This document shows, piece by piece, positions 41,031-48,544 of a stretch of 64,000 bases of DNA. The translations under genes were made by a program, and so were the position numbers. Source of the stretch: an uncultured bacterium (GTDB lineage: Bacteria; Actinomycetota; Acidimicrobiia; Spongiisociales; UBA5794); contig CAWDDT010000004.1 in the NCBI GenBank assembly GCA_963801165.1, positions 32,001 through 96,000 on the forward strand, read 5' to 3'. The notes below the pieces were generated by a model, which had not been told where the DNA came from, searched no databases, and saw only the letters and a program-made list of their open reading frames with translations. Numbering within the stretch: position 1 is the stretch's first letter; every line of letters starts with the position of its first letter.

Positions 41031-42155
41031 TCACACCCTTACCTCGAAGCTGTTGGTCCAGGTGAGCAGTTCGTCGGAGAGCGAGCGGAGCACGACCGCT
41101 GATTCTGGGTCTGTGTCATCGGCAGCATCGATCACCTGATGCATCCGCTTGGCCATACGGGCAAGCCGGGAGGTGAATGCCTTGATAGCAGTGGGCTTGT
41201 CGTATGGACCCGGACCCAGTGGTTCATAATTCAAGTCCTGATAGACAGTGTTGAGGCGACCGTCGGGAGCGACTCCCAGAGTACGCATCCGCGCCGCAAT
41301 TGCGTCACAACCTGCTCTGACGAGTGCGTCGAAGTCGTCTAGCTGCTCGCGCAGTGTCTCGGCATCGTCATCGACGTTCCAGCGCAAATGCTGGATTTGG
41401 AGAGTGAGATCAACCAGATCACCGAGTACCCGCTGTAGCCCGTGTCCGTCGCCGGCGGCAGCCGCACGGTCGTCCGATCCGTTGCTGCCGGCCTGGCTGT
41501 CGTTGTTCCGCTGGTACCTGTCTCTGTCGAACGGCGGCAGTGCGCCAACCGTGGTTGGATCCACACTCAGGTGGACGCCGCCGTCGCCGATGCGTTGTAC
41601 AAAGGTGATCGGTACAGCGCGTTCTGGTGCGGGCACGTCGTAGTTGATGACGAGGTGCGTCGCCCGGCCATCTTCATTGGTGATGACCTCGCTGATCGTC
41701 CCGATCTGGTCACGATCCTTCGAAAAGACAGGCGACTCCGGCTCCAGAGCCACCGCACGCTCCGGAATGTTTCGAGCCGTCACGGTCCTCGTGTATGGCA
41801 ATTCAGGCGGCAGTGGAGCCCCATAAGGGCCGTACCACGCGAGCGACGGAATGGTCGGGTTCGGGGTTGGTGTACCCGAAGCGTCCGTAGCGCCGGATGG
41901 GTTGACCGCCACATATCGGCTCTCGTCAAAGGGCCGGTACTCATCGGGTCTGGCGCTGTCCTTGAGTTCGACGCGCTCCTTGGTGGCTGTGGCGATGTCG
42001 GAGACGGGGACGATCTTCTCCTCAGGCAGGAAGATGCCCTTGCGTACCACCAATTGTGTGACCTCGTCTGCCACCGGATCGATGATGATGCGATCGATCT
42101 TGCCCAGGTCGTCATTGCGGGCGGTATAGACGCGTGCGTTCTCATTGAATTCCAT
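41031..42155 (-). CDS. Fusion of two PRC-barrel domains and a degenerate Dps/ferritin-like domain
   Basis: LGKIDRIIIDP..VTQLVVRKG, IGTISEVI..ATHLVI; LQRVLGDLVDL..WNV..QLDD..DAIAARMRTLG.APDGR; AAAGGAG RBS. Confidence 0.8.
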   Translation of the reverse strand: MEFNENARVYTARNDDLGKIDRIIIDPVADEVTQLVVRKGIFLPEEKIVPVSDIATATKERVELKDSARPDEYRPFDESRYVAVNPSGATDASGTPTPNPTIPSLAWYGPYGAPLPPELPYTRTVTARNIPERAVALEPESPVFSKDRDQIGTISEVITNEDGRATHLVINYDVPAPERAVPITFVQRIGDGGVHLSVDPTTVGALPPFDRDRYQRNNDSQAGSNGSDDRAAAAGDGHGLQRVLGDLVDLTLQIQHLRWNVDDDAETLREQLDDFDALVRAGCDAIAARMRTLGVAPDGRLNTVYQDLNYEPLGPGPYDKPTAIKAFTSRLARMAKRMHQVIDAADDTDPESAVVLRSLSDELLTWTNSFEVRV

Positions 42156-42185
42156 GGATCTCCTTTCTCGTTCCATGCCGGAGAC

Positions 42186-42212
42186 CTACCCGTTTGAGCC
42201 GTGATGCAAACC
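42186..42212 (-). promoter_or_regulatory. SigB/SigF-type promoter for the PRC-Dps gene
   Basis: GGTTT-N16-GGGTAG on the minus strand. Confidence 0.75.
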
Positions 42213-43784: not shown

Positions 43785-44117
43785 TCAACTCCGGGCGGCC
43801 ATCATCGAGGCGTCGAACGGCTCAATCATGATGCACTCACCCGGGCATTCCTCGGCGGCCTCAACGGCAACTTCGATCTGATTATCCGGGATCCTGGCCA
43901 CACCCCTGGCGCCGTCGGGCCCATGGCCATCTCCGTCGGCTCCGTCGAAGACGATTGTTTCTCCGAAATTGCTCGACTCTTCCTTGACCACCCACAGGCC
44001 GTCATCCCGCCCCATGAATACGTCGGGGCAGATCTCTTCGCAGATGCCGTCTCCGGTGCACAGATCTTGATCGATCCACACCATCAGTTGGGTCCCGTCA
44101 GCCATCGTCTTTGTCAC
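43785..44117 (-). CDS. Single-cluster ferredoxin
   Basis: IDQDLCTGDGICEEICPDVF..AEECPGECI. Confidence 0.9.
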   Translation of the reverse strand: MTKTMADGTQLMVWIDQDLCTGDGICEEICPDVFMGRDDGLWVVKEESSNFGETIVFDGADGDGHGPDGARGVARIPDNQIEVAVEAAEECPGECIMIEPFDASMMAARS

Positions 44118-44530
44118 GCTCCCTGTGAGTCGGCGGTGGAGCGGAGTGTCCTTATCCGCCGCGCTTCTGCGCTCGTCTTCTCGAGCAGATCGATGCCGTG
44201 GTTGAAGGACCGGGCGTCGCGGCCGTGCTTGATGTAGGTCAAGCCTTCGACCTGCCGGATGGAACGTGCGGTTCGTCCCAAGCGCTTTGCGATCCTCGAG
44301 TAGGTCTCGCCCCTCGAGCGGAGTGCGATAACACGCCGCTCAATCGGGCGTGGACCGGGCCGGTGCCGTCGACCGTTCCGCTCGAGCTTCATCCATTTGA
44401 GCATGCGCCGCACGAGACCCGGGCTTTTCTGTATCCGATCGGCGATTTCGGTGATCCCATCGCCCTTGTCACGCATCTGGCGCACGACCCGCTCGATCGG
44501 GCGCAGCTTCTGTGTCGGTACCTGCTTCAT
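44114..44530 (-). CDS. Tandem-HTH protein
   Basis: Repeated RPIER.V...R..G....IA.R..... unit; GAGG RBS before MKQV; stop overlaps the ferredoxin start. Confidence 0.72.
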   Translation of the reverse strand: MKQVPTQKLRPIERVVRQMRDKGDGITEIADRIQKSPGLVRRMLKWMKLERNGRRHRPGPRPIERRVIALRSRGETYSRIAKRLGRTARSIRQVEGLTYIKHGRDARSFNHGIDLLEKTSAEARRIRTLRSTADSQGA

Positions 44531-44730
44531 ATCAGTTCGTTCCTCTCTTCTCGTTCCGTTGGCATTACCTTCTGCGCCACCTTCTGCCTCACCTTCTGCG
44601 GCGGGCCGCCAGATCGAGGTATCTTCCTCGACCTTCTCGATCAGGAACGCCGGTGCCGCAACCATGGAGTGTCTGTGCGGCCCGGGCTGTGCAACGCGCC
44701 GGTGCAACGCCTTCACCGTTGCCCGTAGGT

Positions 44731-44762
44731 TTCATGTGTAGAAACGTTCATGTGTAGAAACG
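44731..44762. repeat. Exact 16-nt tandem direct repeat
   Basis: TTCATGTGTAGAAACG twice. Confidence 0.85.
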
Positions 44763-44815: not shown

Positions 44816-44842
44816 ATACCCGGCGCGGTGGTGCACCAAACC
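44816..44842 (-). promoter_or_regulatory. SigB/SigF-type promoter for HTH-ferredoxin-MFS
   Basis: GGTTT-N16-GGGTAT on the minus strand. Confidence 0.72.
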
Positions 44843-44865
44843 CATGAACGGCCAAACCCATGAAC
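44836..44865. repeat. 14-nt direct repeat with 16-nt period
   Basis: CCAAACCCATGAAC at 44836 and 44852. Confidence 0.85.
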
Positions 44866-44881
44866 CTTTGTTGCAGAAGTT

Positions 44882-44908
44882 GGTTTCAAGTTCTGTCTCG
44901 AGGGGTAT
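44882..44908 (+). promoter_or_regulatory. SigB/SigF-type promoter for the anti-sigma gene
   Basis: GGTTT-N16-GGGTAT. Confidence 0.75.
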
Positions 44909-44982: not shown

Positions 44983-45354
44983 ATGCAAGTGAGCGAGGCA
45001 AAATTCCCGGCGGACGCTGCTGCGCCCGCTGCGGCGCGTCGGTTTGTACGCGAGGCAGGGATTGTGCCCGAGGACCGTGTCGAGGATGTCGTGCTTCTGG
45101 TCAGCGAGCTAGCGACCAACGCCGTAAAGCACGGGCCGGATCAAGCTGAGATGATCCGGGTTCGGATCACGAAATTGGCCGACTCGGTCCGCGTAGCGGT
45201 TGAAGATCCCGGCTCGGGCTTTGATGACCCAACACCAGCGCCGAGACGCCCGGGTTCGGGAATGGGTCTCTACCTGGTCCATGAACTTTCCAGCAAGTGG
45301 GGTATCGAAGGAGATGGTCAGACGGTGGTCTGGTTCGAGATCGCCGGTGGTTAG
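44983..45354 (+). CDS. rsbW: RsbW/SpoIIAB-like anti-sigma factor kinase (HATPase_c)
   Basis: LLVSELATNAVKHG, VEDPGSGF, GSGMGLYLV..KWG; GAGG RBS. Confidence 0.85.
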   Translation: MQVSEAKFPADAAAPAAARRFVREAGIVPEDRVEDVVLLVSELATNAVKHGPDQAEMIRVRITKLADSVRVAVEDPGSGFDDPTPAPRRPGSGMGLYLVHELSSKWGIEGDGQTVVWFEIAGG

Positions 45355-45357
45355 CGG

Positions 45358-46440
45358 CTAGTCGGATCCCTGTATCCACTTTCGGAGCGACTCAACCGAT
45401 CGTGCCAGGAGCCGTGACACGTGCATCTGCGAGATCCCGACTCGCTCCGCTATCTCGGCCTGGCTGAGGTCTTCGTAGAACCGAAGATATAGGATCCTCT
45501 GCTCCCGCTCTGGGAGTTGATCCATAACCAACGACAGATCGGACCACTCTGGTGCCATGTCGAGGCGTGCGTCGTGGGATGGCAAGACGTCGCGGAGGGC
45601 ACGCGCATCCTCGTCGCCTCTCGGGGCATCGAGTGAGGTCGCGGAGAACGACTTGCGTGCCAGGAGCGCCTGGCCCACTTCACCGGGGTCGGCGTCGATA
45701 TGCTCGGCAAGCTCGTCGAGAGTGGGCTCGCGCCCCTCAGATTGCTCCAGTTGCTCGGCGGCGAGTTTGGCCTCGAGGCCGAGCTCCTGCAAGCTGCGGG
45801 GAACCCTTAGTGACCAGCCCGAGTCACGCAAGTACCGTTTCAGCTCACCGTTGATGGTACGGGCCGCAAAGGTTGTGAACCTGACTCCCCGGTCGGGGTC
45901 GAAGCGGTCGATCGCCTTGATCAGGCCTACTGCGGCTACCTGCCCCAGCTCGTCCCGCTTCAGGCTCGGCCCGGCGAATCTGCGTGCCAGGGAGTAGGCA
46001 AACGACTCGTAGCGACGTATCAGCTCGGCTCGTGCCGGAGTATCCCCCGAGGAAGCCCTGGCAAATAGATCTGATTCCCCGGTGCCTGCAGTGAATGTGT
46101 AAGGGTGATCGAGGGTGAATACTGCTTGGCCGGGCTCGACGAACCAGGTGGATGCCAATGTCTCCAACAGTTCCTCGGCGAGGGGGTCGAGCGACTCCGC
46201 GATGCCATCGCTGCTGGCGGCTACGCGGATCCCGGTGCCGTTGCGCACCACCTCCAGGGTTACCGGAGCGTCGACGTCGATGGCCACCGCCATAACCAGC
46301 TCGTTGACGAGGACCATCAAATCCGAGCGGTCCCTGGCGCGCAGATCCCCAACCATGTCTCTGAGGGCGCGTCGGGCGGCGCGTGCGGCGCTTGCAGTAG
46401 GGAGCTCGAAGCGAGCGGTGTGCTCTCCTCCTCCGGTCAC
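45358..46440 (-). CDS. SigB/SigF/SigG family sigma factor with an N-terminal degenerate RsbW-like domain
   Basis: VGLIKAIDRFDP, TINGELKRYLRD, LRVPRSLQE, SQAEIAERVGISQMHVSRLL; the first ~115 aa resemble HATPase_c. Confidence 0.9.
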   Translation of the reverse strand: MTGGGEHTARFELPTASAARAARRALRDMVGDLRARDRSDLMVLVNELVMAVAIDVDAPVTLEVVRNGTGIRVAASSDGIAESLDPLAEELLETLASTWFVEPGQAVFTLDHPYTFTAGTGESDLFARASSGDTPARAELIRRYESFAYSLARRFAGPSLKRDELGQVAAVGLIKAIDRFDPDRGVRFTTFAARTINGELKRYLRDSGWSLRVPRSLQELGLEAKLAAEQLEQSEGREPTLDELAEHIDADPGEVGQALLARKSFSATSLDAPRGDEDARALRDVLPSHDARLDMAPEWSDLSLVMDQLPEREQRILYLRFYEDLSQAEIAERVGISQMHVSRLLARSVESLRKWIQGSD

Positions 46441-46763: not shown

Positions 46764-46942
46764 ATGGGCGAGGCTCCAGTCGGCGACCGAGGGATACATG
46801 GGCGCGTCGCTTGGAGGTCCGGGCACCCTCTGCGCAATGCGCCCGCTGAGTATAGAAGGACTGGCCTCAGTCCGATCGACGCGGCGCGACCATGCTGGGC
46901 CGGTTTCGAAACAGAAGTGGGGCCGTGCAGATAGGATTGGTC

Positions 46943-48544
46943 ATGTCGGTGGTTGTAGAGATAGGGAATGCGATAACTCGGCAAGCGTTTTCACACCTAG
47001 AGGTGCGTTACGAGTCGCTTCGTGCGCTCGCCATCGATCTGGCCGCGGCAACATCGGTTGACGAAGTCACGGCGGCGATTGCATCAACGGCGGCAAGAGC
47101 ACTTGATGCGCTTGTGTGTGGCGTTCTGGTGGTGCGCCAGGGCGTCGACGGTGTCCATTCGGTGATCAAGGAAGCCGATCGCGATCTGAAGGCAGTTCTG
47201 GATGCCTGCCCGGGGCTACTGGACTCGATGTGGAAAGCGGTCGACCAGGAGATGCCCGCGCGACTCGACCTCGATGTGTGCGAAACCGCACGCGTCGGGT
47301 CGGCCGAGGTGTACCCGATCCCACTGGAGCCGCGCCGTGTGGCAGTTTTGGTGCTGGCCTGGAGCGGGCGCGCCCTTTCCTCATCCGACATTGGAGCTGT
47401 TGTCGGGTTGTGCCGGGCCGCACTAGTCCGGGCCTGGGCCACCCGCCGGGTTCGTGAACTGTCCCCCATCATGGATGCGCTCTTCGAACAAGCGGCGATC
47501 GGATTGGCGTTCCTGGACACTGATTTGCGCTATCAACATGTGAACCACCGTCTCGCTGCTATCCACCAGCGGCCGGTCTCGGAGCATCTCGGCCGGACGC
47601 TGCGGGAGATGACGCCCCACATGGCAGACACCGTTGAGCCCTTGTTGCGCAAGGTGATCGAAACTGGTGAAGCTACCGGCAAGGTCGAAGTGACGGGCCC
47701 GGCGCCGGACGGGAATGGCTCGGCGATCTTCGAAGTCGCCTACCTGCCCGTTGAGGTCGACGGTGAGGTTGTTGGCGTTGCCGCTGTTGTCGATGATGTC
47801 ACCGAGGACCGGTTGCGGCTCGAGGACCTGCGGCACCGCTATGAGTTCGAGCGAGACGTCGCTGCCCGGCTGCAACGCGGGCTGACCCCACGTGACTTGC
47901 ACCAGCCGGAGGGCTACGAGGTGGCGACCAGTTATGCGGTCGGCTCTGCGGGCCTTGGGATCGGTGGAGACTGGTACGACGTCATCGAGCTCCGCGACGG
48001 GTGTGTGGCTTTTGTCATGGGGGATGTTGTCGGGCACGGTCTCGACTCGGCGCTGGCCATGGTGAGGCTCCGGCACACGCTGGCCGGTCTCGCCCATTCC
48101 GGGCTCGATCCAGTCGAGGTCCTCGGCAAGCTCGACGAATATGCTACCGACACCGGTGATCAGTTCGTAGCCACCCTTGTGTATGGCTTGCTCGAGCCGG
48201 AAGGGGGTGGGATCACGTTGAGCTCGGCGGGTCACCTACCCCCATTGCTGATCACCACGGCGCACGTCGACCCTATCCACGCCGCGGGCACGCCGGTCGG
48301 GGTGACGGCAGGAAAGCGCACCCCGACTAACTTCTCGATGGATCACGGAGACACGCTCCTGCTATACACCGACGGGGTGATCGAAGAGCGTGGAGAGTCG
48401 GTGGCGATAGGTCTGCAACGACTCATGGATCTGGCTAGTAAGCCGTTCTCGTCGGCCCAGGAGTTGGCGGACAGGATCTCTGCCGAGGCGGCCCGACACA
48501 ACAACTCGGATGACGCCGCCGTAATGGTGCTGCGCCGATTCTGA
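46943..48544 (+). CDS. GAF/PAS-containing SpoIIE/RsbU-type PP2C phosphatase
   Basis: PAS (AIGLAFLDTDLRY..VN), GGDWYD, GDVVGHG, AGHLPP, LYTDG, DD; start uncertain (46892-46943). Confidence 0.9.
   Translation: MSVVVEIGNAITRQAFSHLEVRYESLRALAIDLAAATSVDEVTAAIASTAARALDALVCGVLVVRQGVDGVHSVIKEADRDLKAVLDACPGLLDSMWKAVDQEMPARLDLDVCETARVGSAEVYPIPLEPRRVAVLVLAWSGRALSSSDIGAVVGLCRAALVRAWATRRVRELSPIMDALFEQAAIGLAFLDTDLRYQHVNHRLAAIHQRPVSEHLGRTLREMTPHMADTVEPLLRKVIETGEATGKVEVTGPAPDGNGSAIFEVAYLPVEVDGEVVGVAAVVDDVTEDRLRLEDLRHRYEFERDVAARLQRGLTPRDLHQPEGYEVATSYAVGSAGLGIGGDWYDVIELRDGCVAFVMGDVVGHGLDSALAMVRLRHTLAGLAHSGLDPVEVLGKLDEYATDTGDQFVATLVYGLLEPEGGGITLSSAGHLPPLLITTAHVDPIHAAGTPVGVTAGKRTPTNFSMDHGDTLLLYTDGVIEERGESVAIGLQRLMDLASKPFSSAQELADRISAEAARHNNSDDAAVMVLRRF

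Follow-up and report, generated by a model that had tools for sequence, protein, structure and literature searches.

Partner switching is usually explained as the release of a free sigma factor from an anti-sigma dimer. The locus described here raises the question of how such a switch might work when the sigma factor cannot leave its partner. Within a 64,000-nucleotide stretch of DNA from an uncultured acidimicrobial bacterium (the window), one gene encodes a sigma factor joined in frame to an anti-sigma-type domain. A conserved covalent sigma/anti-sigma pair of the RsbW class would have to function without release.

The fusion is real. Its reading frame runs through 360 amino acids with zero internal stops (Table 1), and Pfam places sigma70 regions 2, 3 and 4 at residues 140–354. 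The protein narrowly passes the TIGR02980 SigBFG model (235.5, cut-off 234.35), and the closest match to its region 4 is mycobacterial SigF (8jzt_A, E 4e-16). A first-pass annotation of this DNA had described an in-frame fusion to an intact SigB/F-type sigma factor, and these results bear it out. The junction near 46100 was checked in contigs from four runs of one study and is crossed in three of them. Run X1, which may be the source sample, has one contig that covers the whole stretch, and one X2 contig and two X3 contigs cross with no indel listed there; the listed pieces of run X4 extend just 22 nt beyond 46100. Together with the in-frame relatives described below, these contigs rule out an assembly artefact as the source of the fusion. 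The database entry for the protein, P0006, begins at Met29 (332 aa) and so omits the first 28 residues; residues 7–28 make up strand 1 and helix 1 of the fold and contain the invariant Arg23. A monomer model of the full-length protein (pTM 0.54) gives no domain arrangement, and a predicted complex of two N-domains with sigma residues 211–360 scored 0.21 and 0.12 against a mark of 0.32, a result that weighs neither for nor against contact.

Table 1. Features of the fusion locus, in window coordinates.
Feature	Position	Strand	Remarks
Fusion gene, RsbW-fold putative pseudokinase domain + SigB/F-type sigma	45358..46440	-	360 aa, GTG start
Putative pseudokinase domain, residues 7–113	46102..46422	-	keeps Arg23, Asp40, Glu47, Trp99; lacks the N-box Asn (Ala51 position), the G1 Asp (Ser77 position) and G2
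Short linker, residues 114–121	46078..46101	-	contigs from three runs cross it
Sigma domain, regions 1.2 to 4, residues 122–358	45367..46077	-	Pfam, TIGR02980, region-4 comparison
STAS anti-anti-sigma, 108 aa	46437..46763	-	GDLD and FIDSSG motifs; sole STAS match in the genome
Stand-alone RsbW-type Ser kinase	44983..45354	+	N, DxG and GxG motifs; the genome's only strong HATPase_c_2 match
Sensor phosphatase: weak GAF-like region, PAS, SpoIIE/PP2C	46943..48544	+	alternative start 46892
SigF-type promoter match, GTTT-N16-GGGTA	44883..44907	+	precedes the kinase gene; G003 and G005 have it at the same position
SigF-type promoter match	44817..44841	-	upstream of the tandem-HTH gene 44114-44716
SigF-type promoter match	42187..42211	-	upstream of the PRC-barrel/Dps-like gene 41031-42176
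CTATACTC, possible housekeeping -10 of the STAS-fusion operon	46848..46855	-	invariant in 3/3 aligned genus members

The N-terminal domain is assigned to the RsbW/SpoIIAB fold by its predicted structure. Pfam finds no anti-sigma family in residues 1–115, pairwise BLASTP against the neighbouring RsbW is not significant (E 1.4), and the query domain alone, used as a pattern against the genome contigs, finds no relative. A profile–profile comparison of 31 motif-less fused domains with 32 stand-alone RsbW-type kinases returns a probability of 99.7 and E 3.6e-27. Because those kinases were retrieved by a profile that itself held the fused domain, the fold match is the more independent test. A model of the domain alone (pLDDT 91, pTM 0.85) superposes on B. 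subtilis RsbW 6m36 (Z 15.5, rmsd 1.5, 98 aligned), UsfX 8ih8 (Z 15.4, rmsd 1.7, 107 aligned), SpoIIAB 1l0o (Z 14.4, rmsd 1.8, 109 aligned) and Rv1364c (Z 14.3, rmsd 2.5, 107 aligned). Below RsbW, UsfX and SpoIIAB come three more entries at Z 10.8–14.3, and then a drop; histidine kinases reach Z 7.7 at most. Foldseek with the whole fusion model returned sigma factors only among the matches listed. The predicted domain has a Bergerat fold, on which the first-pass annotation had staked its proposal beforehand, including the N-terminal strand 1/helix 1 dimer surface. The resemblance of the first ~115 residues to the neighbouring RsbW, argued there from eight quoted peptides that are all present, thus holds in profile and in fold (Z ~15).

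The same annotation had reported that the domain lacks the N-box Asn and the DxG and GxGL motifs. In the register alignment none of them is present (Ala51 and Ser77 occupy the N-box Asn and G1 Asp positions), and the description 'catalytically dead' is well supported by these absences. The lid segment has 14 residues, against 18–21 in the four fusions that keep all motifs. Annotation is nearly blind to the domain, with HATPase_c_2 (Pfam) above cut-off in 1 of 30 representatives.

The neighbouring genes supply the other parts of a partner switch. The STAS stop codon overlaps the fusion start (GTGA, 46437–46440), and rsbW converges on the fusion, ending at 45354, 3 nt from its stop, with the N, DxG and GxG motifs kept; both the STAS coupling and the intact convergent kinase gene had been noted at the outset. 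The PAS-PP2C phosphatase gene is divergent from the STAS-fusion operon. The source genome is 98% complete with 5.6% contamination. One marginal SpoIIE match accompanies its single strong one, the fusion is its sole SigB/F-type sigma, and the local UsfX-type profile picks up the kinase and the fusion only. Since the single STAS protein, the strong RsbW, the strong PP2C and the SigB/F sigma are all encoded here, this locus appears to be the genome's partner switch.

On balance, and by a modest measure, we favour the reading in which the fused domain serves as an anti-sigma tethered to its target and is opened by STAS in its unphosphorylated form; the separate kinase and phosphatase would set the state of STAS. 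In the resting state, the kinase-dead RsbW-fold domain would keep the sigma domain off RNA polymerase, probably with two fusion chains paired as a dimer, while the stand-alone RsbW kinase maintained STAS phosphorylation. The PAS-PP2C phosphatase would strip the phosphate, allowing STAS to dock on the Arg23/Asp40/Glu47 face of the fused domain, and the docked STAS would displace the sigma domain. A tethered sigma could not diffuse off, and the switch would therefore be a closed-to-open change within one polypeptide. The active sigma would then transcribe GTTT-N16-GGGTA promoters, including that of the kinase gene, producing negative feedback. The observations cover the predicted fold, the missing motifs, sequence conservation, the gene neighbourhood and the promoter enrichment; dimerisation, sigma binding, STAS binding, inhibition and feedback are all steps that we infer. 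This reading is favoured by the source genome itself, where the parts of the switch are single and co-located and a UsfX-type gene is missing. It is also favoured by the STAS proteins of fusion loci, 71 of 75 of which keep the G[ED]xD and phosphorylated-Ser motifs. Autoinhibition in cis, one of the two roles that the first-pass annotation had suggested, gains some indirect backing from the retained STAS-docking residues and from searches that found another dedicated anti-sigma neither in this genome nor in 43 of 62 fusion genomes.

Promoter patterns likewise speak for the tethered anti-sigma. The window contains five matches where 0.99 are expected, three of them GGTTT-N16-GGGTA and within 3.2 kb of the fusion; the mycobacterial SigF consensus is given as GGWWT-N16-17-GGGTAY in the available part of PMC7693655. 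Across 73 other fusion loci (565 kb), which are mutually related and come in some cases from genomes with a second, unfused sigma, spacing 16 yields 159 sites against 0–6 per spacing outside 15–17, an enrichment that favours our reading. Sites are present in 65 of the 73, and 21 of 52 kinase genes have one within 250 nt upstream, compared with 0.7 expected from shifted spacings. Genome-wide in the source genome the signal is weak (19 sites at spacing 16, 3–15 at other spacings). Judged from its gene content, the fusion is the only candidate sigma there for SigF-type promoters. The STAS-fusion operon may use the possible housekeeping -10 listed in Table 1, an element left uncalled by a sigma70 consensus scan.

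Several features near these promoters deserve separate mention. The gene at 41031–42176 (minus strand), behind a SigF-type promoter, joins a PRC-barrel region to a Dps/ferritin-like domain. Of 61 genomes, only the three genus members with the sigma fusion have it at full length; six others, one of them unpublished, show partial matches. The gene at 44114–44716 (minus strand) encodes a small protein with two similar HTH repeats and adjoins ferredoxin and MFS genes. A 16-nt tandem repeat at 44836–44866 bears the -35 box of a minus-strand SigF-type promoter; relative to the window, an additional copy is present in contigs of runs X1 and X4. There is a second short duplication at about 44730–44762.

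Sequence traits of the family indicate that the fused domain descends from a kinase-type RsbW that later degenerated, converging on the state of UsfX. Many of the loci carry separate small dead RsbW genes, and a profile of 38 of these stand-alone genes matches both B. subtilis RsbW (E 1e-14) and UsfX (E 7e-14). Against the PDB, the kinase profile finds no UsfX chain at E 0.01, and the profile of dead fused domains finds nothing better than E 1.6. A helix-3 Trp motif is shared by the kinases (71 of 76) and the dead fused domains (51 of 54; 91 of 98 when all fused domains are counted), while every one of the 43 UsfX-type genes lacks it. Conversely, the UsfX-type D-L-[RK]-L-A signature is found in 28 of 43 stand-alone dead genes and 0 of 98 fused domains. 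The kinase profile gives the higher score for 86 of 98 fused domains. A 'UsfX fused to SigF' is ruled out at the family level by the Trp motif, the signature counts and the profile matches. This ancestry counts against the tethered anti-sigma, as the fused domain stands outside the UsfX lineage, whose anti-sigma role is proven. So do the query domain, which scores 25.7 bits on the kinase profile and the UsfX profile alike, and the 12 of 54 dead domains that score no better on the kinase profile.

The family also extends beyond the dead domain first described, as it includes members with intact or partly intact kinase motifs. Read from alignment columns, the motif classes among 99 fusions are 55 with none of the three motifs, 4 with all three, 32 keeping the Asn and G2 with the G1 Asp mostly changed to His, 6 keeping the Asn only and 2 the DxG only. 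The N-retaining loci L057–L093 and many nearby stand-alone kinase-type genes have the G1 Asp replaced, often by His, with the N-box Asn and G2 kept. A quick tree of 94 sigma domains gathers all fusions into a single clade (support 95), within which six unfused sigmas also lie, and shows four changes between fused and unfused. One fusion with later fissions and several separate fusions both fit this tree.

The residues that the fused domains share point to STAS. Arg23 is R and position 47 is E/D in 99 of 99 aligned fusions; position 40 is D/E, and Trp99 is kept, in 95 each. Arg23, Asp40 and Glu47 align with Arg23, Asp42 and Glu49 of B. subtilis RsbW, which form hydrogen bonds with RsbV (PMC7340262, in the portion available); the position of RsbW Tyr118 is not conserved among the fusions. 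Retention of STAS-contact residues at a median identity to the query domain of 25% (lowest 16%) favours the tethered anti-sigma. Arg23 and Glu47 are equally invariant in 32 stand-alone kinases, and UsfX-type genes conserve the Arg to at least 90%. These residues are therefore indicators of fold family and of STAS docking rather than of sigma binding, and their sharing with the kinases weighs against a tethered inhibitor.

Substitution rates bear on whether the domain does anything at all. It could be the relic of an old gene fusion, retained for folding or solubility alone with no regulatory role, and the six unfused sigmas nested among the fusions would suit such a history. So would the fused domain's rate of change, which exceeds that of the sigma in each of 10 pairs picked by hand from close relatives. 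The domain dN/dS is nevertheless 0.10–0.29 in all ten, which shows purifying selection and favours the tethered anti-sigma. With these values below 0.3 and a surface Arg invariant down to the lowest identity, we judge a relic very unlikely.

The linker raises another alternative. The distance from Phe108 to Asp133 is 23–27 residues in 99 of 99 aligned fusions, although the linker sequence is variable. The domain might be a removable pro-domain that keeps the sigma inactive until the linker is cleaved proteolytically, by analogy with the IutY sigma/anti-sigma hybrid or Streptomyces SigH. Fused ECF anti-sigmas (PMC8999054) and N-terminal SigH processing (PMC8346170) are precedents in the available parts of those papers. 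We find this explanation extremely improbable, however, for a short linker of variable sequence in a locus that has a complete reversible STAS/kinase/phosphatase set and a conserved STAS-docking face.

UsfX-type genes complicate the identification of the anti-sigma. Among 62 fusion genomes (two near-duplicates left out; completeness 57–100%), such a gene lies in the fusion locus in 16 and elsewhere in 3. None is shown in 43, the source genome among them, in a search with a loose pre-filter in which every match of at least 35 bits was accounted for and weaker ones were inspected in part (20 regions fetched). Held-out UsfX-type members score at least 37 bits in 38 of 38 tests. The 43 genomes favour the tethered anti-sigma; the 16 and the further 3 count against it, and the 16 that keep a separate UsfX-type gene beside the fusion make it less likely that inhibition falls to the fused domain in every case. 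Where STAS lies upstream (44 operons), the tally is 27 dead fusions without and 2 with a UsfX-type gene, and 14 motif-retaining fusions with and 1 without. Thus 27 of 29 fully motif-less fusions directly follow STAS, and 14 of 15 motif-retaining ones have a UsfX-type gene between, an arrangement that supports our reading. On the other side, motif loss and UsfX loss are not significantly linked (two independent pairs on well-supported branches), and a local UsfX-type gene is also missing beside 22 of 34 N-retaining fusions.

UsfX-type loci (L101, L102, L062, L063, L066, L089 and others) usually have a second dead RsbW gene, divergent and beyond STAS. By analogy with M. smegmatis RsbW3, its product could act as an antagonist.

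Both the tethered domain and the stand-alone kinase have precedents as inhibitor. As described in the available part of PMC7693655, the kinase-negative RsbW1 of M. smegmatis binds SigF, the kinase RsbW2 does not, and the rsbW1 mutant is unstable. This division of labour favours the tethered anti-sigma, and yet the failure of RsbW2, the best-studied mycobacterial kinase, to bind SigF can also be held against it. Several RsbW homologues of Streptomyces phosphorylate BldG and also bind sigmas (PMC8346170, as far as available). The stand-alone kinase here could thus itself be the anti-sigma, as in Bacillus, which is a further point against our reading. The fused domain would then be a STAS-docking module instead of an inhibitor. 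The kinase or a UsfX-type protein would restrain the sigma, and the domain would tune the switch by keeping STAS near, buffering it or letting it act directly on the sigma, with either sign. Such a role would suit the conserved residues, which are those mapped to STAS contact, as well as the 19 of 62 genomes with both a fusion and a UsfX-type gene and the existence of an 11-member cluster of STAS-domain-sigma triple fusions. It sits poorly with the 43 genomes without a UsfX-type gene, where the kinase would be the sole anti-sigma, and with the tight linker length, which suggests a fixed geometry relative to the sigma. We consider it rather improbable.

A stronger candidate, though still an unlikely one in our estimation, is a heterodimer. 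The fused domain would pair with the stand-alone RsbW kinase (or a UsfX-type protein), the pair would hold the tethered sigma, and the fusion would fix specificity and stoichiometry instead of being the inhibitor by itself. RsbW and SpoIIAB dimerise by strand 1 and helix 1 with one sigma per dimer (PMC7340262, available portion), which a 1:1 pair would satisfy. The fused domain and the kinase are of the same lineage, and a kinase-type gene is present in 27 of 31 dead-class loci. For M. smegmatis, the accessible part of PMC7693655 proposes RsbW1–RsbW3 heterodimers but also reports that RsbW1 failed to co-purify with the kinase RsbW2. Moreover, the kinase gene lies behind a SigF-type promoter and may be scarce at rest, and PDB 8jzt, with three SigF region-4 and three UsfX chains, suggests from its chain counts only that a partner-free 1:1 complex is possible.

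The fusion is common in one order of uncultured Acidimicrobiia and unseen outside that order in the genomes sampled. A junction-spanning profile matches 66 of 301 genomes of the order. When the loci were translated, 61 of 301 proved to be in-frame fusions, one of them with a truncated sigma end; of the remaining matches, G104 has a copy that a frame change splits, and in four genomes the genes are separate. Relatives thus keep the fusion rather than two genes, as the single-gene proposal had implied. The frame change in G104 (L106/L017) lies inside the RsbW domain, and the sigma of G066 (L103/L014) ends early; either may be a sequencing error. By family, the fusion is found in 48/74 in one family and 4/74 in the window's own, and two of 14 genus relatives have it. 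Among 401 genomes sampled from the class, no stop-free junction-spanning match lies outside the order. In a phylum sample of 401 genomes, five of them unpublished and giving negative rows only, the full-length stop-free matches among the best 150 of 310 lie only inside the order. Two cases outside it, once translated, have separate dead-RsbW and sigma genes with a stop between. The metagenome distribution is based on protein searches. Among the best 150 matches in a 50%-identity protein library, 29 of 30 scanned junction-spanning proteins carry sigma regions 2, 3 and 4; library relatives are labelled Acidimicrobiia and nest among the order's fusions on the sigma tree.

Other architectures and copy numbers were seen in these searches. 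Seven genomes (G119, G128, G204, G212, G222, G236 and G260) have two or three fusion paralogues each, often differing in motif class, and some paralogue loci (L093, L146–L148) lack neighbouring switch genes. P0031 (494 aa) and its cluster are STAS-degenerate RsbW-sigma triple fusions with 11 members, 8 of them of 483–498 aa and one labelled Acidimicrobiia; the STAS domain of P0031 has Thr where the phospho-Ser usually sits. P0032 (336 aa) has the reverse order, sigma regions 2–3 followed by an intact-motif RsbW domain, and no region 4; it is a single member on a 1.8-kb contig and possibly an artefact.

Taken across the order, the fusions may reflect a general stress response that runs by partner switching without partner release. 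A sigma-fused RsbW kinase would have given up ATP binding stepwise, from intact motifs through Asp-to-His to the loss of every motif, and taken over the anti-sigma job. UsfX would have become dispensable, and STAS phosphorylation would have been turned into an open/closed change in a single polypeptide. We offer this scenario tentatively, holding it a little short of an even chance. If it is true, the STAS-pseudokinase-sigma triple fusion would be its end point, a one-chain, phosphorylation-gated sigma.

The family would offer several opportunities. It forms a natural series from active kinase to pseudokinase and would mean that a UsfX-like dead RsbW arose a second time, independently. The fusion would allow a test of whether STAS docking alone, by steric displacement, suffices to switch a sigma on, and a single-chain, phosphorylation-controlled sigma could serve as a compact synthetic switch. 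Its significance is limited by hosts that are uncultured and by a parts list that is that of a known system.

Several known systems share features with the fusion. The Bacillus RsbW-RsbV-SigB and SpoIIAB-SpoIIAA-SigF switches (PMC7340262, available portion; 6m36, 1l0o) share its fold (Z 15.5 and 14.4), counterparts of the RsbV-contact residues and the STAS motifs. However, their anti-sigmas are free dimers that are both kinase and anti-sigma, whereas the fused domain lacks N, G1 and G2. ECF sigmas with fused regulators (IutY, ECF36/41/48/52/53) also combine a sigma and its own regulator in one chain. They belong to group 4, carry membrane, ZAS or SnoaL-type extensions and act through release by proteolysis or conformational change, and neither an RsbW fold nor STAS phosphorylation appears among them in the available part of PMC8999054. 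No membrane-spanning anti-sigma extension of the IutY type is found here; the fusion is a group 3 sigma with a soluble alpha/beta N-domain. Rv1364c (PP2C-RsbW-STAS; PDB 3ke6; PMC7693655, in part) is an actinobacterial case of fused partner-switch components (fold Z 14.3), but there the regulators are fused to one another and the sigma is excluded. Searches of the open-access literature turned up no account of a SigB/F sigma joined to an RsbW-fold domain, and none appears in the available parts of PMC13712970 and PMC12008989.

The closest relative is the mycobacterial SigF switch (RsbW1/UsfX, RsbW2, RsbW3 and RsfA/RsfB; PMC7693655, available part; PDB 8ih8, 8jzt). The two share a SigF-type sigma and promoter consensus, a kinase-negative RsbW-fold protein adjoining the sigma (fold Z 15.4), and a separate kinase and PP2C acting on STAS; as with UsfX/RsbW1, a dead RsbW fold occurs here in a genome with a separate kinase, STAS and PP2C. 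They differ in that no stand-alone dead gene lies upstream of the sigma gene. The dead domain instead sits in frame on the sigma chain, cannot be released, and appears to be of kinase-type lineage, with true UsfX-type genes separate in some relatives. The parts and logic are thus already known from the mycobacterial SigF switch, and the covalent joining of an RsbW-fold domain to a SigB/F sigma is a new variant of it.
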